Positions 14,350 to 34,543 are shown, counted from the stretch's first letter. The stretch: 34,543 nt of DNA from an uncultured Candidatus Saccharibacteria bacterium (GCA_964361495.1 CAYIAH010000002.1:6217-40759), one strand, 5' to 3'. A program made the numbers and translations. The notes: generated by a model not told the origin, from the sequence alone.

Positions 14350-14378
14350 AGTATACTCCTTTGGGCAATAAAAATCAA
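14350..14378 (-). promoter_or_regulatory. rnpB promoter (TTGATT-17-TATACT)
   Basis: Predicted start site near 14343 coincides with the 5' end of helix P1. Confidence 0.7.
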
Positions 14379-14824
14379 GAGAAGAGTTTCATTTGTTCGC
14401 GATCGAGCGCTTCGTTCACAAGGCGATCCGCATCACGATTCTGTTCCCTCCGGATGTGATGAAACTGAACATTATTGAACTCAAGCTTGAGATTCCATAT
14501 TTTAATGAACAAAGGGAACAGTCGTTCCTCCTCAATTTTATACTGTCCCGTGAGCTGACGAGCCACAAGCTCACTATCCATTCTCATCTCAACGCGAGCT
14601 TCATGCGCGCGCGCGCCGCCGATGAGCGCTTTTATTTTCTCGAGCGCCCGCGCGACCGCCCGATATTCGGCTTCATTGTTCGTCGCGATCCCCAACGACT
14701 CGCCGAAACTTTTCATCACCTTTCCTTCGGCATCCTGAATGACGACGCCGACTGCCGCAGGTCCCGGATTCCCCCGCGCCCCGCCGTCCGTATAGACAAT
14801 AAATTTTTCTGAATTTTTTGCCAT
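14375..14824 (-). CDS. rnhA: Ribonuclease HI family protein
   Basis: YTDGGARGNPGPA, TNNEAEY, DSELV, HIRREQNRDADRLVN (D-E-D-D catalytic set); compact type without basic protrusion. Confidence 0.92.
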   Translation of the reverse strand: MAKNSEKFIVYTDGGARGNPGPAAVGVVIQDAEGKVMKSFGESLGIATNNEAEYRAVARALEKIKALIGGARAHEARVEMRMDSELVARQLTGQYKIEEERLFPLFIKIWNLKLEFNNVQFHHIRREQNRDADRLVNEALDREQMKLFS

Positions 14825-21514: not shown

Positions 21515-22312
21515 TCACGCCATCGTAAGCACTTCCGCGCCTTCATGCGTCACCGCGACCGTGTGCTCAAAATGCGCGGCGATACTCCCGTCAGCCGTTT
21601 TGAAAGTCCATTCATCATCTTCCAGTATGACGCGCCAATCGCCAAGAGTCGCCATGGGCTCAATCGCAATCACCATTCCCTCTTTCAACTCGGCGCCGGT
21701 GCCTTCTCTGCCATAATTTGGAATGAGCGGCTCTTCGTGCACCCGATATCCAACGCCATGCCCCGCAAGATCCCGGATAATGCCGAGATTATTTTTTCCC
21801 AGATGCGCCCCGACAGCCGCGCCGATATCGCCGACGCGCGCACCAGGCCGCACGGCGCGAATGCCAATCTCAAGCGCCTCTCGCGTCGCACGAATCAAAT
21901 GTTCCGCTTCTCGCGAAATTTTTCCGATTCCCGCGGTCACTGCCATATCCGTACATAAAGATGGTAAACTTTTTGCTTTATCCGGCCACCACATTCCCAC
22001 ATCAATCCCGACCACATCGCCCTTTTTCAGCAACACCGCGCGGCGCGGAATCGCATGCACCACCTCATTGTTTATCGAGACGCAAATACTGCACGGATAG
22101 GACGCGCGCGCATCTTTGATTTTATAGCCCTTAAACGACGGTACGCCACCCGCTTCGCGCATCAAATGCTCTCCGAGGATATCAAGATCATACGTTGAGA
22201 CTCCGGGACGGGCCGCCGCGACAATCGCATCCAGAATCTCGGCAAGGCGCTTGCCGCCTTCGCGCAGTATCGCAATTTCTTCATGACTTTTAATAGTAAT
22301 CGCCATGGTCAT
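21515..22312 (-). CDS. map: Methionine aminopeptidase type I
   Basis: CVSINNEVVHAIP, D..D metal ligands, GHGVG..VHEEP, AIEPM, AHFEHT. ATG 22312 overlaps the adk stop (ATGA). Confidence 0.96.
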   Translation of the reverse strand: MTMAITIKSHEEIAILREGGKRLAEILDAIVAAARPGVSTYDLDILGEHLMREAGGVPSFKGYKIKDARASYPCSICVSINNEVVHAIPRRAVLLKKGDVVGIDVGMWWPDKAKSLPSLCTDMAVTAGIGKISREAEHLIRATREALEIGIRAVRPGARVGDIGAAVGAHLGKNNLGIIRDLAGHGVGYRVHEEPLIPNYGREGTGAELKEGMVIAIEPMATLGDWRVILEDDEWTFKTADGSIAAHFEHTVAVTHEGAEVLTMA

Positions 22313-22932
22313 AGTGACCCCCATTTTTTGCCGATTTTCTTCTTGTTCTTGAGCATTGTCTCCAAATCACGCCACACGTCTTCTACCGATTGTTCGCCGT
22401 TAATTCGTATAAGCCGTCCGCTCTTTTCGTAATAGTGAATCACTGGCACGACAAAATGAGTAAACGCCCAGAGCCGCCCGCGGATTGCGGCGGGGTTATC
22501 ATCTGCGCGGCCGCGGCTCAACAGCCGCCGCCCCGCCTCCTTTGCGCTCACTTCAATGATGATCGCAATCGGCAAGGGACGCCTATGCCATGCCATAATT
22601 TCATCAATCACGCGCGCCTCCCACTCCATGCGCGGAGATCCGTCAAACACCAAATGCTTGCCGCCGTGCCCGCCCTCAATAAATTCATTAAGCCATGCAA
22701 AAAGCGCGAGCCACGGCGGCACAAATTGGCCCTTTCTCAATACTTCGCGACTCAATGATGTCGTCGGATTATCGTAACGCTCATTGAGCGCACGAAGAAA
22801 CCGCCCCGTCTCAAATCGGAATCCCTTTCCCCCGAATCGCTTCATCAAAAGTTCCGCCTGCGTTCCCTTGCCGGAACCGGAGCGGCCGAGGATTACGAAT
22901 GCAAGTTTATTTTTTAGGTCGAGGATTCTCAT
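22309..22932 (-). CDS. adk: Adenylate kinase (short-LID type)
   Basis: GRSGSGKGTQ, DGSPR, LLSRGRADD; canonical secY-adk-map position. Confidence 0.88.
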   Translation of the reverse strand: MRILDLKNKLAFVILGRSGSGKGTQAELLMKRFGGKGFRFETGRFLRALNERYDNPTTSLSREVLRKGQFVPPWLALFAWLNEFIEGGHGGKHLVFDGSPRMEWEARVIDEIMAWHRRPLPIAIIIEVSAKEAGRRLLSRGRADDNPAAIRGRLWAFTHFVVPVIHYYEKSGRLIRINGEQSVEDVWRDLETMLKNKKKIGKKWGSL

Positions 22933-24204
22933 TTACATATTCTCATACTCTCTCATCACCACCTGCGCTTCAATCTGCTTCATGGTTTCCAGTACCACTG
23001 ATACCACAATAAGGAGCGCGGTGCCGCCGATCGTCAGCGCCTGCACTCGAAATGCATTCTGAACGAGAATTGGCAGCACCGCAATCACGCCAAGGAAAAG
23101 CCCGCCCGCGAGCGTAATGCGGCTAATAATGTAGGCGAGAAACTCCGCCGTCGGCTTGCCCGGCCGCACCCCCAAGATAAACCCGCCCTGTTTCTGAATA
23201 TTTTCGGCAATCGCGTTCGGATCAAAAGTCACGGCCGTATAGAAATAGGTGAACACGAACACCATCAAGAAATATACCGCTCCGTACGCCCACTGATTAT
23301 TAAATGCCTGAATAAGAAACCGCGATATCTCCTGCATATACGGATTCGGAATCCCCGCAAGAAAACTCCCGATCAGTCCCGGAAAAAGAATAACCGACAC
23401 CGCAAAAATAATGGGAATCACTCCTGCCTGATTGACGCGCAACGGCAGATGAGTCGACACGCCGCCGTAAAGCCGCATGCCCCGTATCCGCTTTGCATAT
23501 GAGACCGGGATATTGCGCTGGCCCTCGGTGATGAAAACCACCCCCGCAATCACCGCAATGCTCGTCACCAAAAACACAAGGAAAAAAGGAAGTTTGTCCG
23601 GCGTGAAGGTAAACAACTCCTGCTGCAGCGACCGCGGAAGCGTCGCCACAATACCCGCAAAAATGAGAAGCGAGATGCCGTTACCGATTCCTTTTTCCGT
23701 GATAAGCTCACCGAGCCACATAAGAAACATCGTCCCTGCGGTAATCACAATCATATTTGACAGATACCCCAAGGGACCAAGCGGCGGGATTACCCCCTGA
23801 CGAATCAGAAGCACGAGAAGTCCGTATGCTTGCACGAATCCGAGCGGCACAGCGAGAAACCGCGTGTAGTGGTTAAATCGCGTTCTCCCCGCCTCACCTT
23901 CTTCATGATATATTTCTTTAAGCCGCGGCACGAGCATAGTCAAAAGCTGCATGATGATGGAAGCCGTGATATACGGGCCCACGCCGAGCATCACGATTGA
24001 AAGATTATCAAGCACGCCGCCGGAGAAAATATTGAAAAGGCCGAAGAATTGGTTTCCTGTAAGAAACGACTTGAGCCGCAGGGGATCCACTCCCGGGACC
24101 GGAATCATTGCCGCCACGCGAAAAACCACCAGCATTGAGATCACAAACAACACTTTTCTCCGCAAGTCCGGAATCGTAAAAAGAAGAGAAAATTTACGGA
24201 ACAT
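22933..24204 (-). CDS. secY: Preprotein translocase subunit SecY
   Basis: LGVGPYITASIIMQLL, WLGELITEKGIGNGISLLIF, AGVIPIIFA, GVRPG, GGTALLIVVSV. Confidence 0.98.
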   Translation of the reverse strand: MFRKFSLLFTIPDLRRKVLFVISMLVVFRVAAMIPVPGVDPLRLKSFLTGNQFFGLFNIFSGGVLDNLSIVMLGVGPYITASIIMQLLTMLVPRLKEIYHEEGEAGRTRFNHYTRFLAVPLGFVQAYGLLVLLIRQGVIPPLGPLGYLSNMIVITAGTMFLMWLGELITEKGIGNGISLLIFAGIVATLPRSLQQELFTFTPDKLPFFLVFLVTSIAVIAGVVFITEGQRNIPVSYAKRIRGMRLYGGVSTHLPLRVNQAGVIPIIFAVSVILFPGLIGSFLAGIPNPYMQEISRFLIQAFNNQWAYGAVYFLMVFVFTYFYTAVTFDPNAIAENIQKQGGFILGVRPGKPTAEFLAYIISRITLAGGLFLGVIAVLPILVQNAFRVQALTIGGTALLIVVSVVLETMKQIEAQVVMREYENM

Positions 24205-27637: not shown

Positions 27638-28003
27638 TTACACCACCTCCTGCGCGAGCGAGATAATTTTTATAAACCCGCGTTCGCGCAACTCCCGTGC
27701 GATAGGGCCAAAAATGCGTCCCCCTTTCGGTTCGCGCCCGTCAACAATCACGGCGGCATTCTCATCAAAACGAACGTACGAACCATCCTCGCGCCGGAAC
27801 GGCGCGCGCATCCGGACGATCACTGCGCGCACGAGATCTTTCTTTTTAATAAGTTTGCGGGGCTCGGCAACTTTCACCGACGCGACCACCACGTCTCCGA
27901 GACGCGCGTACCTTCGACGCGTCCCCCCCAGTACTTTAATAACCTGAAGCAGTTTTGCTCCGGTGTTATCCGCAACTTTCAGCATGGATCTGGGCTGTAT
28001 CAT
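27638..28003 (-). CDS. rplN: 50S ribosomal protein uL14
   Basis: MIQ....[26 protein letters not shown]. Confidence 0.98.
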
Positions 28004-28269
28004 AGAATAGGCGATTCAGCGTGTTCCTCGCTCATTGGCCTCTTGATCAAAGAGGCTACCTTCCATCGTTTTTCTTTTGAACGCGGCCGCGTCTCTTCAA
28101 TCACTACAATGTCTCCTCTGCGAAATTCTCCTTTCTCATCGTGCGCTTTTATCTTCTTGGAAATGCGAATTTGTTTCTGATATTTCGGATGTTTTTTCAG
28201 GCGATCAATACGAATGACCACAGTTTTTTGCATCTTATGCGAAATGACAGTCCCTTGAAGCGTTCTCAT
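28000..28269 (-). CDS. rpsQ: 30S ribosomal protein uS17
   Basis: GTVIS.KMQKTVV, HPKY.K, AHDE, ETRP.SK.KRW. Confidence 0.96.
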
Positions 28270-28673
28270 ATTTTACTTACTAATCTTGTTTTAACCGGAA
28301 GTTTATGGGCGGCGCGCCGGAGCGCTTCCTCGGCGATCTCGGCGCTCACGCCATCAATTTCAAAAAGAATCCGTCCCGGACGGACCGGCGCGACATACCG
28401 ATCAACCGATCCTTTCCCTCCGCCAAGCGTCACTTCCGGGGGCTTCTTCGTCACGGGCTTATCGGGAAATATTCGTATCCAAATTTTCCCTCCGCGCTGG
28501 ACATAATGCGTCATCGCGCGGCGCGCCGCCTCAATCTGACGCGCCGTAATCCAGCATGCCTCGAGAGATTTGAGACCGTGGGCGCCGAAATTGAGTTCGG
28601 TGCCGCGGGTTTCAATCCCCCTCGTCCGACCTCTCTGCCATTTTCTATGTTTTACCTTTTTTGGCTGCAGCAT
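28266..28673 (-). CDS. rplP: 50S ribosomal protein uL16
   Basis: [31 protein letters not shown]. Confidence 0.97.
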
Positions 28674-28676
28674 AAT

Positions 28677-28725
28677 TAATCACTAGTAACTAGTAACTGG
28701 TTACTGATTACTGTTACTAGTTACT
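28677..28725. repeat. Heptamer (TAGTAAC / GTTACTA) tandem-inverted repeat
   Basis: TAATCACTAGTAACTAGTAACTGGTTACTGATTACTGTTACTAGTTACT between rpsC and rplP. Confidence 0.75.
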
Positions 28726-29389
28726 TTGCGAAAACGTCTCCTTTATAAATCCACACTTTCACGCCCAACGTCCCGTAACTCATGTATGCGGTCTTATCCG
28801 AATAGTCAACATGGGCGCGGATTGTCTGAAGCGGAATTCGTCCCCTTTTCCCCCATTCGTATCGGGCCATCTCCGCGCCGTCAAGACGTCCTTTAAGTGA
28901 AATCTTCACGCCCTTGACCTCTTTTGACGCGGAAATCTTCTCAAGATGCTGTTTGAGCACGCGGCGGAAAGGAAGCCGTTTTTCAAGATCATCAACAATC
29001 ATCTGTGCGGCGAGCGCCGCGTGCGATTCCGGCGATGATACCTCCTGAATAGTCACCTTCACCTCCCGTTTTTCCGGCACGCGCCCGAAGCGTCTGCGCA
29101 CCTTCTGCAAAAACCGCGTAATGTCTTCTTTTAGTCGTTCCGCCCCTTCCCCGCCGCGCCCGATGATGAACCCAGGCCGCGCCGTTTTTATAATGACGTG
29201 CACGGCGTTCGGCGAACGCTCGATCTCAACCGTCTCGACATGGCTCTGCCGCAAACGGCGAAGCAGCCATTCGCGCAGCATCGTATCCTCGAGCAAGTAC
29301 TCGGCGTATTTCTTTCGATTAAACCAGCGCGACTTCCATGTATAAAGCTGGCTGACTCTGAAAATGTACGGATGAACTCGATGCGTCAT
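28721..29389 (-). CDS. rpsC: 30S ribosomal protein uS3
   Basis: TARPG.IIGRGG, GRLDGAEMAR, PLQTIRA, YGTLGVKVWI. Confidence 0.97.
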   Translation of the reverse strand: MTHRVHPYIFRVSQLYTWKSRWFNRKKYAEYLLEDTMLREWLLRRLRQSHVETVEIERSPNAVHVIIKTARPGFIIGRGGEGAERLKEDITRFLQKVRRRFGRVPEKREVKVTIQEVSSPESHAALAAQMIVDDLEKRLPFRRVLKQHLEKISASKEVKGVKISLKGRLDGAEMARYEWGKRGRIPLQTIRAHVDYSDKTAYMSYGTLGVKVWIYKGDVFAK

Positions 29390-29398
29390 AAAATCTAT

Positions 29399-29917
29399 TT
29401 AAATAGCTTTTCTTCTGAATACTCTTTGAACGAATCCTTTTCGCAAAGGACGGCTCATGCGCCGCGCATCCTCCCGCACTTCTTTCTTTCGAAATCCCAT
29501 ACCCTTGATATCTTCGGCGCCGAATTCCCGCACTGCGGGCCCCGCGCTTTTTCGTTCGACTCCCCGCTGACCGCGCGCCGCGTCCTTTTTTGTATCCAGC
29601 ACAAGCGACACATGACTCGTCTTTTTTCGCCGCGGCGCCGCGCGTCCGAACGCGCGCGGCATGAACCGCTTCTCTGCCGGACCCCCATCAACGCGGAGCT
29701 CTTTAATGTACAAGTCGCCCTCATCCACATGAAAGTTATGCCGCGCATTTGCCGCTGCCGATTGAATGAGCTTCAGCAGGGGGAGCGCTGCCCGTTTCGG
29801 CACGCCCCGCACCTGCCTCATTGCTCGCGCAATATCTTTGCCGCGCAAAAGATCTGCAAGGATCCGGACCTTGCGCGGGGCGATATGCACATACTGTAGC
29901 GATGCTTTAATTTCCAT
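29399..29917 (-). CDS. rplV: 50S ribosomal protein uL22 with ~64-aa C-terminal extension
   Basis: APRKVR, SAAANA, PRAFGRA, TSHVSLVL, then a charged tail ending KGFVQRVFRRKAI; ATG 29917. Confidence 0.95.
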   Translation of the reverse strand: MEIKASLQYVHIAPRKVRILADLLRGKDIARAMRQVRGVPKRAALPLLKLIQSAAANARHNFHVDEGDLYIKELRVDGGPAEKRFMPRAFGRAAPRRKKTSHVSLVLDTKKDAARGQRGVERKSAGPAVREFGAEDIKGMGFRKKEVREDARRMSRPLRKGFVQRVFRRKAI

Positions 29918-29927
29918 GATTATTCGG

Positions 29928-29995
29928 CTCGGAGGAGGAAACCCTCGCGCTTCGCGCGTCACTCTAGGGTTCTTTGCCTTCTCGGCGAAGCGATG
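29928..29995. repeat. Short copy of the structured element at 16821
   Basis: CTCGGAGGAGGAAACCCTCGCGCTTCGCGCG versus CTCGGAGGGAGAAACCCTTGCGGCTTCGCGCG; AACCCT/AGGGTT stem. Confidence 0.6.
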
Positions 29996-30001
29996 ATGTT
30001 A

Positions 30002-30334
30002 TTATTTTTTATCGGGCGCGGGGGCTTCTGCTTTTTGTTTTTCGGCTTCCGCCGCTTTCTGCTCAAGTTCGCGCTGCATTCTTCCGCCGTGCCGGATAAA
30101 TTTTCGCGTCGGCGAAAATTCTCCCAAGCGATATCCGACCATATCCTCCATAATTTTTACTTCCGTAAATGCGCGCCCGTTGTGCACGCCAAACGTATAC
30201 CCAATCATCTCGGGACTGATCATAGAATCCCGCGACCATGTCTTAATGATCGTCTTGGAGCCGGGCGCAATACGGGACATATGCTTCAGAATGCTCGGAT
30301 GTATGTATGGACCTTTCTTTAGTGACCGTGACAT
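30002..30334 (-). CDS. rpsS: 30S ribosomal protein uS19
   Basis: MSRSLKKGP, KTWSR, VHNG, LGEFSPTR; short charged C-terminal tail. Confidence 0.97.
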   Translation of the reverse strand: MSRSLKKGPYIHPSILKHMSRIAPGSKTIIKTWSRDSMISPEMIGYTFGVHNGRAFTEVKIMEDMVGYRLGEFSPTRKFIRHGGRMQRELEQKAAEAEKQKAEAPAPDKK

Positions 30335-30353
30335 TGATAAAATTTCAATTAGT

Positions 30354-31184
30354 TCATTTCCTGCGCCTTGAGATAATAAACATGTCGGATTTCTTGCTCT
30401 TCTTTCTCGTCTTCACTCCCCGTGCCGGCTTGCCCCAAGGCGTCGCGGGCCCCCGGCGCCGGCCAATGAGTGTGCGTCCTTCTCCTCCGCCGTGCGGGTG
30501 ATCCACCGGATTCATTGCTGATCCCCGTACCGTGGGCCGCACCCCCCTCCGGCGCGCTCTGCCCGCATTGCCGACCACCATAAACTCGTGTTCCTCATTG
30601 GAGAGCGCGCCGAGCGACGCCCAATTCATTGAAAGAATTTTTCTCACTTCCTTCGACGGAAGCTGCACATGAGTATACGCCCCCTCATGCGCGAGCACCG
30701 TGGCGCCCGCTCCCGCAGCACGCGCGATTGCAGCGCCCCGGCCGCGTTCAAGTTCGATATTGTACACAGATGCCCCGACCGGAATTTTCCCCAAAGGAAG
30801 ACGATTCCCCGACTCAATGGGCGCATCTTCCGAAGCGATGACTTCGGCGCCAATCTTCAAACCGCGCGGCGCAAGGACATACCGTTTCTCTCCGTCGCGG
30901 TACTGAAGCAGTGCGATAAAACTTGTCCGGTTTGGATCGTACTCAATTGAAACCACCCGGCCGGGTATATTTACTTTGTCGTATCTAAAATCAATCGCGC
31001 GCCACAGCCGTTTTACCCCGCCGCCTTTATGGCGAGTCGTAATGCGCCCCTGATTATTGCGTCCGACCGGCCGCGTCCGTCCGAAGGTGAGCGATCGTTC
31101 CGGCTCGCGCGCGGTGATCGCCGTTTTCCACTCAGGAAACAGAGCTTGCCGCCGGGCCGGAGAAGTTGGAGGATATTTTTTCAT
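30354..31184 (-). CDS. rplB: 50S ribosomal protein uL2
   Basis: GRNNQGRIT, IEYDPNR, VRGSAMNPVDHPHGGGEG, TPWG. Confidence 0.98.
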   Translation of the reverse strand: MKKYPPTSPARRQALFPEWKTAITAREPERSLTFGRTRPVGRNNQGRITTRHKGGGVKRLWRAIDFRYDKVNIPGRVVSIEYDPNRTSFIALLQYRDGEKRYVLAPRGLKIGAEVIASEDAPIESGNRLPLGKIPVGASVYNIELERGRGAAIARAAGAGATVLAHEGAYTHVQLPSKEVRKILSMNWASLGALSNEEHEFMVVGNAGRARRRGVRPTVRGSAMNPVDHPHGGGEGRTLIGRRRGPATPWGKPARGVKTRKKSKKSDMFIISRRRK

Positions 31185-31215
31185 ATAACGTACCGTGACA
31201 ACTTATTATTACAAA

Positions 31216-31611
31216 TTACAAACCTTCAATCGTCTGCCCTTTCTTGATCGTCACCACCGCTTTTTTCACCCCATGCTTCCATCCGATCTGTCGGCCGCGG
31301 CGGCGCATTTTGTCGCGCGCCGCAATCACATGCACCGCGCACACATTCACGCCGTAGCGCGCCTCGACCGCGCGCGCAATCTGAATTTTATTGGCGCGAT
31401 TCCCCGCCACAAACGTATATTTATTTTCCTTCATCCCCGCGTTTGATTTCTCCGTCATACGGGCGCGAATAAGCACGCCTTTCACCAAGGGCCCCCGAAC
31501 ATCCGCGGCGGCGGTCTTCGGCGCCTCTTCAAGCGCGCCGGACACTTTCGACGCCGCCGAAGTTATTTCTTTTCCCTCTCTTCCTCTGAAAATTTTACGA
31601 AAAAAACTCAT
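31216..31611 (-). CDS. rplW: 50S ribosomal protein uL23 with ~40-aa N-terminal extension
   Basis: TEKS, Y.F, ANKIQI..AVE, KKAVVT..GQ.I. ATG is 4 nt after the rplD stop; extension starts MSFFRKIFRG. Confidence 0.94.
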   Translation of the reverse strand: MSFFRKIFRGREGKEITSAASKVSGALEEAPKTAAADVRGPLVKGVLIRARMTEKSNAGMKENKYTFVAGNRANKIQIARAVEARYGVNVCAVHVIAARDKMRRRGRQIGWKHGVKKAVVTIKKGQTIEGL

Positions 31612-33457: not shown

Positions 33458-33745
33458 TTATACTTTTGCTTCCAATTTTTTAATCCTCTGATCATGGCCG
33501 TGCAATTCATCAGTAATCCGCCCGTGAAGCACGGCGTGCGCCGCATGATCTTTCTCCGCCTTATCAAAACGAGTAATGATCTTATCCACCCCCTGAAGTA
33601 TCTTTGCGGTCTCCCCCCTTATTTCTTCTCTCATTTCTCCCATTATCTCCTCTTTTATCTCCCCTTTGAATTCTCCGAGTCGCGCATCAAGGTACTGTTC
33701 GGTGACGAACCGTTCGCGATTGGTTTTTCGCGTGACCTTTTTCAT
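33458..33745 (-). CDS. Hypothetical coiled-coil protein, 95 aa
   Basis: ATG 10 nt after the rpsJ stop; E/K-rich helical pattern ending DQRIKKLE. Confidence 0.75.
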   Translation of the reverse strand: MKKVTRKTNRERFVTEQYLDARLGEFKGEIKEEIMGEMREEIRGETAKILQGVDKIITRFDKAEKDHAAHAVLHGRITDELHGHDQRIKKLEAKV

Positions 33746-34514: not shown

Positions 34515-34543
34515 AGATCGGAAGAGCACACGTCTGAACTCCA
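34515..34543 (+). other. Illumina TruSeq adapter remnant (artifact)
   Basis: AGATCGGAAGAGCACACGTCTGAACTCCA is the standard adapter read-through sequence. Confidence 0.98.

Follow-up and report, generated by a model that had tools for sequence, protein, structure and literature searches.

Conserved cationic peptides at the termini of ribosomal proteins uL23 and uL22 as candidate membrane anchors in Parcubacteria-type bacteria

FtsY, the receptor of the signal recognition particle (SRP), is reported to bind anionic lipid through its N-terminus and through the helix at the junction of its A and N domains (Phe196 plus residues 197-207), the A domain between these lipid-binding segments being disordered (PMC5094494, PMC2928010). 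Mitoribosomes are described as tethered to the membrane by mL45 in mammals, by Mba1 together with the rRNA expansion 96-ES1 in yeast, and by mL119 in Chlamydomonas (PMC8998825, PMC8321541). Here we analyzed a 34,543-nt stretch of DNA, referred to as the window, from an uncultured Candidatus Saccharibacteria bacterium (GCA_964361495.1, CAYIAH010000002.1:6217-40759). The S10-spc ribosomal operon that it carries comes from the Patescibacteria (Candidate Phyla Radiation, CPR) and is of Parcubacteria type. Two ribosomal proteins encoded there, uL23 and uL22, bear at the N-terminus and the C-terminus, respectively, a short cationic peptide that is conserved among relatives and joined to the folded core by a divergent linker; these peptides are candidate membrane anchors.

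Almost all cells have kept SRP and its receptor, and how Parcubacteria insert membrane proteins without them has been an open question since 2015; a quarter to a third of a Parcubacteria-type proteome has to be inserted without SRP. The loss of SRP in Parcubacteria is already in print, neither ffh nor ffs having been detected in any of their genomes (Nelson and Stegen 2015, PMC4508563), and two SRP subunits are described as absent from many CPR bacteria (Moreira et al. 2021, PMC8080830). An unusual YidC, small cell size and a low number of signal peptides were suggested earlier for SRP-less Parcubacteria in PMC4508563, which also cites Seitl et al. 2014 for C-terminal tails of YidC/Oxa1 that bind the ribosome and take over part of the role of the SRP receptor. 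Likewise in print are the enlargement of uL22 and uL23 in CPR, the amino-terminal region that uL23 has in some of the CPR, and the loss of uL29 from particular CPR lineages (Tsurumaki et al. 2022, RNA 28:1041, PMC9297842). That paper calls the function of the extensions uncharacterised, and the parts of its text considered here mention no motif, no amphipathic character, no connection to SRP loss and no role at the membrane. Outside subscription-only papers, we found no description in the literature of the terminal motifs, of their likeness to FtsY, MinD or FtsA anchors, or of a membrane tether on CPR ribosomes.

The uL23 of the window was assigned to its family by a profile score above the curated cut-off (Table 1) and by its rplD-rplW-rplB position. 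Its structure was predicted by AlphaFold2, run for both proteins with 71-sequence alignments, and the core obtained a predicted local distance difference test score (pLDDT) of 88-97. A 45-residue N-terminal extension precedes the Pfam L23 domain. The sequence-only reading of this DNA had described an extension of ~40 residues, composed of MSFFRKIFRG and an A/K/E-rich linker, and this description held, with the motif now read as MSFFRKIFRGR. It has a small residue at position 2, hydrophobic residues at 3-4 and 7-8, and basic residues at 5-6 and 9-11. AlphaFold2 places a helix at residues 3-11 (pLDDT ~66), followed by disorder up to residue 46 and by the confident core; the linker has a pLDDT of 55-59 and no predicted secondary structure.

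uL22 was assigned in the same way, by a score above the curated cut-off and by its rpsS-rplV-rpsC position, and its core reached a pLDDT of 94-98. Translation more likely starts at ATG 29917, giving 172 aa, than at the GTG listed in Table 1, since 70 relatives align from that Met; the tail is unaffected by this choice. The charged C-terminal tail, estimated earlier at ~64 residues, was recovered as 65 residues past the Pfam domain, ending KGFVQRVFRRKAI. AlphaFold2 predicted a confident core up to residue 110 and a pLDDT of 50-65 throughout the tail. The consensus of the terminal motif is G-F-[VI]-[RK]-[RK]-[IVMF]-F-[RQ]-R-K-[AS]-[IV]. A further conserved patch lies mid-tail (G-P-x-V-R-E-x-x-x-E-D-[IL]); it is shared by most members of the family and by some of the order, is missing in family f3, and holds the only helix that AlphaFold2 placed in the tail (residues 134-139 in the 172-aa numbering).

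Two other roles of the uL22 tail were considered and rejected. The genome encodes bL32 (58.3 bits), bL34 (71 bits) and bL17 (81.7 bits), and therefore the tail is not a substitute for a lost small neighbouring protein. The motif is also not a general C-terminal signal of this genome, its sole other match lying in a 98-residue frame that is apparently non-coding.

The distribution of both tails was surveyed in the rplD-to-rpsC stretch of 170 genomes, comprised of (i) 50 genomes of the order, including the genome studied here, (ii) 60 of the class, and (iii) 60 of other classes of the phylum, sampling beyond the order being limited to a single genome for each family; G069, G081 and several second members of families were not part of the survey. 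Genes were assigned by BLASTP against the proteins of the window. uL23 was assessable in 162 loci (eight were not assessable) and uL22 in 166, the uL22 counts omitting L016 and L029, where the gene is cut by the contig end, and L099 and L125, where none was found in the stretch.

A uL23 extension, counted when 30 or more residues precede the conserved TEK anchor, was found in 27/30 genomes of the family, 20/20 of the rest of the order, 45/58 of the class and 18/54 of the other classes. The motif, scored as at least two of F/I/L/W/M in positions 2-5 of such an extension, was present in 26/30, 18/20 (44/50 for the order as a whole), 37/58 and 14/54 genomes, respectively; the expectation from linker composition alone is 3%. 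In the 110 proteins with an extension, the residue at position 2 is A, S or G in 79 cases. Hydrophobic residues occupy position 3 in 79%, position 4 (as F, L or W) in 84% and position 7 in 63% of these proteins; 55% have K or R at position 6, and positions 8-12 are Lys-rich. The resulting consensus is M-[A/S/G]-hydrophobic-hydrophobic-x-K-hydrophobic-[K/hydrophobic]-K. The pooled linkers behind it contain 14.7% hydrophobic residues, 1.1% F/W, 26% K/R and 14% E/D.

uL22 tails of at least 40 residues were found in 113 of the 166 assessable relatives. The terminal motif, scored as F-x-[RK]-[RK] with no more than six residues after it, occurs in 23/28 genomes of the family, 18/20 of the rest of the order (41/48 for the order), 30/59 of the class and 14/59 of the other classes. 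Over the 85 motif-bearing relatives the profile reads G(47) F(51) [V/I] [R/K] [R/K] [I/V/M/F] F(85) [R/Q] R(85) K(84) [A/S] [I/V], the bracketed numbers being counts of sequences; with respect to the fixed F, Arg stands at +2 in 85/85 and Lys at +3 in 84/85. The tail ends exactly two residues past this Lys in 76/85 cases, and in other classes up to four extra residues follow the motif. The uL22 linkers vary in length and contain 15.5% hydrophobic residues and 1.7% F/W, and the linkers of both proteins are net basic (K/R 26-28% vs E/D 14-16%). In uL23 and uL22 alike, conserved terminal peptides are thus carried on divergent linkers, as the sequence-only reading had proposed.

Within the class, 19 genomes carry both motifs, 18 the uL23 motif only, 11 the uL22 motif only, and nine neither, and the two tails have been gained and lost independently. 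An association between them (overall odds ratio ~4.8; 62/31/19/46) was discarded as a product of clade structure, there being none within the class. No genome of the order (0/48) is without both tails, against ~0.9 expected by chance, a difference that is uninformative.

These distributions bear on the possibility of an artefact, in which the uL23 extension would be leader sequence that is not translated, and the uL22 tail either read-through or low-complexity sequence without meaning. N-terminal extensions do depend on predicted start codons, a caution expressed by Tsurumaki et al. 2022 (PMC9297842). The rplW ATG lies 4 nt past the rplD stop codon. In the 106 extended relatives whose rplD is on the same strand, a median of 5 nt separates the rplD stop from the first ATG, and this distance falls between -14 and +11 in 72 of them; the median in 52 relatives without an extension is 1 nt. 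A hypothetical core-proximal start would leave a median gap of 142 nt in the extended relatives, compared to the few nucleotides at the upstream ATG, which is therefore likely the start of uL23. The earlier reading had named a downstream start as one of the findings that would overturn it, and the rplD spacers favour the upstream one. The open frame and the motif at the first ATG are kept in 95 of the 162 assessable genomes while the linkers diverge, and this protein-level conservation together with the usual rplD spacer answers the caution regarding start codons. In uL22, the motif equals the core in its degree of conservation, its R and K being among only seven invariant columns of the 71-sequence alignment, whose rows were chosen for the motif. 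We consider an artefact of this kind extremely improbable.

The specificity of the uL22 motif was examined with a DNA pattern back-translated from G-F-hydrophobic-x-x-hydrophobic-F-x-R-K-[A/S]-[I/V]-stop, searched in one genome for each of 185,579 species (estimated information ~42 bits, ~0.3 chance matches expected). It matched at least 100 stretches. Among the matches listed, which are a sample and not a census, 98 are at uL22 C-termini and two are tails cut at the locus edge; by a hand count of their titles, 84 bear CPR-type labels, 11 are labelled 'bacterium' and five carry other labels. The CPR-type labels are Paceibacterota, Parcubacteria, Wolfe-, Colwell-, Yanofsky-, Lipton-, Harrison-, Jorgensen-, Brenner-, Moran- and Sungbacteria, Minisyncoccia, Patescibacteria group and 'uncultured Candidatus Saccharibacteria'. 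The five other records (L194, L209, L223, L229, L259) are labelled Gammaproteobacteria (two), Bdellovibrionales, Bathyarchaeia and Ca. Tyrphobacter (a member of the Vulcanimicrobiota). In three of them uL2 shares 70-77% identity with records of Moranbacteria or Colwellbacteria, in another SecY is 54% identical to that of the window, and in the last no space is left for uL30 between rpsE and rplO; these metagenome-assembled genome records are probably mislabelled or mis-binned contigs with CPR-type ribosomal operons. Among the matches listed, the motif is confined to uL22 of genomes that look CPR-type, and in many of these records it occurs together with a short uL23.

The amphipathicity of the peptides was expressed as the hydrophobic moment (muH; Fauchere-Pliska scale, 100 degrees per residue) of 8-residue windows; across the own proteome such windows average 0.33 and reach 0.63 at the 95th and 0.75 at the 99th percentile. 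The best 8-mer of the uL23 terminus, SFFRKIFR, has a muH of 0.83 (99.8th percentile of the own proteome), and the 8-mer core of the uL22 motif (GFVQRVFR / FVQRVFRR) one of 0.64-0.67 (96th-97th percentile). In the relatives, the uL22 8-mer motif has a median muH of 0.68 vs 0.27 for the linker, with 82% of motifs above the 95th percentile of the linker; for uL23, this holds for 68% of termini. The peptides thus join moments well above background to a net charge of +3 to +6, and each occupies a free terminus, behind a linker of 34 residues in uL23 and ~50 residues in uL22, as expected of targeting sequences.

The state of the SRP pathway was also examined. In the own genome the best match to the Ffh/FtsY GTPase family (PF00448, 17.7 bits) lies in a PilT-like ATPase, and a divergent SRP GTPase was rejected there, the ORF being a PilT-type ATPase with a PilC-like neighbour. 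The SRP M domain (PF02978), SRP RNA, small or large (RF00169, RF01854), and SRP_SPB were not found in this genome. A six-frame search of it for signature motifs of the SRP G domain yielded only unrelated proteins, the DTAGR and GKTT matches belonging to bL31, triose-phosphate isomerase and unrelated ATPases. In the wider sample, SRP54-type GTPases were found in 0/61 genomes of the order, 2/121 of the class and 1/151 of the phylum, and these three positives are marginal, partial P-loop matches of 24-26 bits. The SRP protein families were detected in 14/14 control genomes; uL2, uL29, YidC and trigger factor were found in the genomes searched, so the search was not blind in them. It had been suggested that the tails would correlate with SRP status. 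Such a correlation cannot hold within the phylum, since a convincing SRP GTPase was found in none of the sampled genomes and the tails are patchy. The genome encodes SecY, YidC and trigger factor. Its YidC is of a short form, with no basic ribosome-binding C-terminal tail and with a cytoplasmic loop and tail that are net basic or neutral.

From these features we infer lipid binding, an orientation of the ribosome at the membrane and a role in targeting. On the exit rim, the uL23 N-terminus and the uL22 C-terminus would each present a cationic amphipathic peptide on a disordered, Lys-rich linker of ~35-55 residues. The aromatic face of the peptide would dip into the bilayer, with its Lys and Arg residues contacting anionic head groups. 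This weak but constitutive attachment would keep the exit side of the ribosome facing the membrane, near SecYEG and YidC, so that co-translational insertion of membrane proteins could do without SRP. Membrane targeting, in the manner of the lipid-binding helices of FtsY, is in our judgement the best single explanation of the tails, at a probability a little under even. A bolder proposal, held with slightly less confidence, is that across much of the phylum the ribosome carries the anchor of the missing receptor, with FtsY-like peptides tethering the exit face, and that insertion proceeds by proximity and not by signal recognition; such ribosomes would be the bacterial equivalent of membrane-bound mitoribosomes.

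Several observations weigh against membrane targeting. The anchors are short, with two to four hydrophobic residues, and binding by a single ribosome would be weak. Neither tail motif is present in 46 of the 158 genomes assessable for both (37 of these belong to other classes), and the tails are thus not needed for life without SRP. A search of the literature on the position of ribosomes in ultra-small cells gave nothing usable. The remaining points concern uL22. As a whole, its terminal 12-mer is not amphipathic (muH 0.21, 36th percentile) and only 4% of the terminal 12-mers of relatives exceed the 95th percentile of the linker; the moment of the 12-mer peaks near 80-90 degrees per residue, and its low value at 100 degrees and the position of this peak leave the R-K-[A/S]-[I/V] end unexplained by a simple alpha-helical amphipathic model. 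This invariant end, with its COOH group, is out of helical phase, and looks more like the recognition of a specific partner than like general lipid affinity. AlphaFold2 placed no helix at the uL22 motif (pLDDT 50-58); membrane-targeting peptides of this type may fold only on lipid. The earlier suggestion that both tails resemble membrane-targeting helices is supported for uL23 by its high moment and predicted helix, and for uL22 by the moment of the 8-mer core but not by the 12-mer as a whole. The membrane-tether reading is weaker for uL22 than for uL23.

The uL22 end brings forward another explanation, in which the terminal peptides are ligands for a specific protein in or near the membrane (SecYEG, YidC, SecA or another receptor), so that the ribosome would carry a docking peptide. 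The near-invariant end is fixed in position and does not share the helical phase of the amphipathic core, as is typical of peptides recognized by their C-terminus, and the second conserved patch in the middle of the uL22 tail would also suit a protein partner, as would the unusual charged internal region described for the YidC of Parcubacteria (PMC4508563). However, the parts of the own YidC that face the cytoplasm are net basic or neutral, and SecYEG with its exposed C4/C5 loops is described as highly positively charged (PMC5094494), which makes a peptide of charge +5 to +6 an unlikely ligand of either. The uL23 motif tolerates any two to four large hydrophobic residues together with Lys, a degeneracy expected for lipid and not for a binding pocket, and the residues trailing the uL22 motif in other classes also speak against a fixed C-terminal ligand. 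We regard a specific receptor as unlikely, the invariant uL22 end being the main argument for it.

It is also unlikely, to a similar degree, that the tails act inside the ribosome, by binding rRNA at the exit face, plugging the idle exit tunnel or aiding assembly, with the membrane uninvolved. Lys/Arg-rich extensions of ribosomal proteins commonly bind rRNA, which counts for this explanation and against membrane targeting, and the linkers are net basic. CPR ribosomes are reported to be without 23S helices H9, H63, H78 and H98 and several proteins, and stabilization of rRNA by the extensions was suggested along with the larger uL22 and uL23 (PMC9297842). Against it, the linkers are unconserved, variable in length and predicted to be disordered, unlike structural rRNA-binding extensions, and the parts that are conserved are aromatic-rich amphipathic peptides at the very termini. 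The presence of bL32, bL34 and bL17 leaves no such protein for the uL22 tail to replace, and the tails occur independently of uL29. The rRNA missing in CPR is described as lying at the ribosome surface, none of it being placed at the exit in the parts of the paper considered here, and the exit-tunnel region is reported to be well conserved (PMC9297842).

Another possible role at the exit would be that of built-in chaperone sites, the peptides holding trigger factor (or DnaK) there. Trigger factor docks on uL23 and prefers short stretches rich in aromatic and basic residues, a preference that the composition of both motifs fits. It is encoded in the own genome, and Trigger_N was found in 98/121 genomes of the class. 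The remaining 23, in which Trigger_N was not found, include whole families (f9 0/4, f21 0/4), and some lineages of the class appear to be without both SRP and trigger factor. Eight class genomes of the locus set are Trigger_N-negative (L065, L071, L076, L077, L092, L104, L109, L115); according to a manual cross-reading, in which L092 rests on a later ATG, seven of these eight keep at least one tail motif, and the tails are therefore independent of trigger factor. A chaperone site is accordingly very unlikely.

The sequence-only reading had combined the tails, the loss of uL29 and the loss of SRP into one co-evolved, mitoribosome-like remodelling of the exit site, and all three features are indeed found in the own genome. 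It had noticed that no uL29 gene (rpmC) lies between rplP and rpsQ, and rightly so: the two genes overlap there by ATGA (Table 1), and a search of the whole assembly for PF00831 gave nothing above the cut-off of 24.5 bits (best match 12.7 bits), by which relocation of uL29 elsewhere in the genome was also rejected. PF00831 is nevertheless found in 58/61 genomes of the order, all of them without SRP and most with tails. The three genomes in which it was not found are that of the window (G000), G001, which belongs to the same genus and has the same ATGA rplP/rpsQ junction, and G052, whose negative is weak, since its operon contig measures only 2007 bp. In G002, which represents the sister genus, uL22 is short and yet rpmC is kept, as a uL29 ORF of ~60 residues between rplP and rpsQ.

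Given that most relatives keep uL29 and are nonetheless SRP-less and mostly tailed, uL29 loss is a separate, recent event, confined to the genus of the window; perhaps it was tolerated since the docking partners were gone. Co-occurrence of the tails with rpmC loss is thus not borne out, and the combined reading is contradicted for uL29 by the different phyletic ranges of its three parts: SRP was not found across the phylum sample, the tails are patchy, and uL29 was not found in only three genomes of the order. A single co-evolved package is, in consequence, highly improbable. As a separate observation, in G044, G025, G054, G041, G015 and G059 the uL29 matches lie in open frames of 100-127 aa, compared to the usual 60-78 aa.

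The assembly comprises 655,551 bp in 28 contigs and is rated 99.1% complete; the window is part of contig C2. The operon runs on the minus strand from ~34.5 kb to 22.9 kb of the window, in the order tuf, rpsJ, an unknown 95-aa ORF, rplC, rplD, rplW, rplB, rpsS, rplV, rpsC, rplP, rpsQ, rplN, rplX, rplE, rpsN, rpsH, rplF, rplR, rpsE, rplO, secY, adk and map, the gene for methionine aminopeptidase (21515-22324). The coordinates of the main features are given in Table 1.

Table 1. Features of the uL23 and uL22 tails and of associated genes (window positions; aa, amino acids)
Feature	Position	Strand	Evidence and remarks
rplW, uL23, 131 aa	31216..31611	-	Pfam PF00276, 80.8 bits (cut-off 30.8), residues 46-129
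uL23 N-terminal motif MSFFRKIFRGR	31579..31611	-	Translation checked; cationic amphipathic peptide
uL23 linker, residues 12-45, A/K/E/S/G-rich	31477..31578	-	Sequence and length vary among relatives
rplV, uL22, 187 aa from GTG 29962	29399..29962	-	Pfam PF00237, 105.7 bits (cut-off 28), residues 20-122
uL22 C-terminal tail, 65 residues past the Pfam domain	29402..29596	-	Translation checked; pLDDT 50-65
uL22 terminal motif GFVQRVFRRKAI-COOH	29402..29437	-	Profile over 85 relatives
uL22 mid-tail conserved patch GPAVREFGAEDIKGMGF	29492..29542	-	P-x-V-R-E-A-T-x-E-D-L in relatives; coordinates checked
ATGA overlap of rplP stop and rpsQ start, no rpmC at the usual site	28266..28269	-	Sequence checked
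rplP, uL16	28266..28673	-	Pfam PF00252, 169 bits
rpsQ, uS17	28000..28269	-	Pfam PF00366, 98 bits
secY, translocon channel; the tails would move the exit site closer to it	22933..24204	-	Pfam PF00344, 356.6 bits

Several further features of the window were recorded. Positions 34515-34543, at its end, match a sequencing-adapter sequence exactly (AGATCGGAAGAGC...), which we take to be the Illumina TruSeq read-through adapter; tuf is cut short there, and this looks like an assembly artefact inside contig C2. The unknown ORF between rpsJ and rplC (33458-33745, minus strand) encodes a highly charged, coiled-coil-like protein of 95 aa without a Pfam match. uS19 (30002-30334, minus strand; 110 aa) has its Pfam domain at residues 3-82, followed by an A/E/K-rich C-terminal tail of ~28 residues from which a hydrophobic end motif is absent. 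The end of rpsE (24643) and the start of rplO (24616) leave no space for rpmD (uL30), the absence of which is reported for all CPR (PMC9297842). rplO is a 140-aa ORF named from its position only, with no Pfam match at E 1e-4. Outside the operon, a 149-aa ORF (14375-14824, minus strand) matches the RNase H and RVT_3 families and adjoins a 258-aa ORF without a Pfam match.

The tails provide a testable hypothesis that comes down to two defined peptides of 8-12 residues. If membrane targeting is correct, ribosome-borne anchors can stand in for signal-dependent targeting, and these bacteria would represent a second, independent origin of membrane-tethered ribosomes besides mitochondria, as well as a living example of the dispensability of SRP. 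It would also give a rationale for the conserved, unexplained enlargement of CPR ribosomal proteins. Should the tether fail, the near-invariant F-[R/Q]-R-K-[A/S]-[I/V] of uL22 would still mark a conserved interaction on the exit side in a large share of the CPR.

The comparison with FtsY was based on the E. coli protein alone (K-12 record). It contains R-G-F-F-S-W-L-G at residues 7-14 and G-F-F-A-R-L-K-R-S-L-L-K-T at residues 194-206, and the best 8-mers within residues 1-14 and 190-207 have muH values of 0.62 and 0.73, comparable to the 0.67-0.83 of the tails. Short FtsY proteins of other bacteria start with M-G-F-F-D-R-L-K-type sequences, very close to many of the uL23 N-termini seen here. 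Shared features are a short, positively charged amphipathic peptide in which a G-F-F-type aromatic pair precedes Arg/Lys, and the position of this lipid-binding (in the tails, putatively lipid-binding) peptide at the end of a disordered linker to a folded part. In FtsY, such peptides hold the co-translational targeting machinery on anionic lipid beside SecYEG. The linkers differ in being acidic in FtsY and basic in uL22 and uL23, and the invariant R-K-[A/S]-[I/V] end of uL22 has no counterpart in FtsY. Moreover, FtsY is a GTPase, whereas the tail peptides sit on ribosomal proteins, and therefore their binding could not be regulated by GTP or cargo. The likeness need not reflect common descent, for which the peptides are too short to be informative.

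The terminal peptides of MinD, FtsA and MreB, which bind the membrane, are similar in lying at the extreme terminus, in their length of 8-12 residues and in the pattern hydrophobic-hydrophobic-x-x-hydrophobic-hydrophobic with flanking basic residues. The MinD peptide KGFLKRLFGG, brought up in the sequence-only reading, is nearly the consensus of many uL22 tails, e.g. KGFLKRVFRRK. The N-terminus of MreB and the C-terminus of FtsA are the sites of the membrane anchors in E. coli. In the own genome, MreB has a 12-residue N-terminal peptide (MSILGNLFGSF) ahead of the Pfam core, with a best 8-mer muH of 0.78, and FtsA ends KFARWLKSLLP (0.95). A 399-aa protein without a Pfam match (G000:C1:70301-71509, minus strand) starts MGIFSRLFSK, a peptide of the same type as those of uL23 and MreB. 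The known anchors differ in that polymers or dimers provide avidity, while a ribosome would have no more than two anchors, with more in polysomes.

With the YidC/Oxa1 tails, the tails described here would share an SRP-independent meeting of ribosome and insertase through a basic tail. In that system it is the insertase that bears the ribosome-binding tail, whereas in the present case the ribosome itself carries the tails and the own YidC has none of this kind. The mitoribosome offers a comparison by analogy, SRP being absent or reduced in both cases and the exit face of the large subunit lying, or here putatively lying, at the membrane beside a YidC/Oxa1 insertase. The likeness of the tails to mL45 and Mba1 is a functional analogy only, and the tethering solutions of mitoribosomes are lineage-specific. 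In mitochondria, an additional protein or a segment of rRNA serves as the tether and makes contact with Oxa1, whereas in the bacteria studied here it would consist of putative lipid-binding peptides on the universal ribosomal proteins uL22 and uL23.

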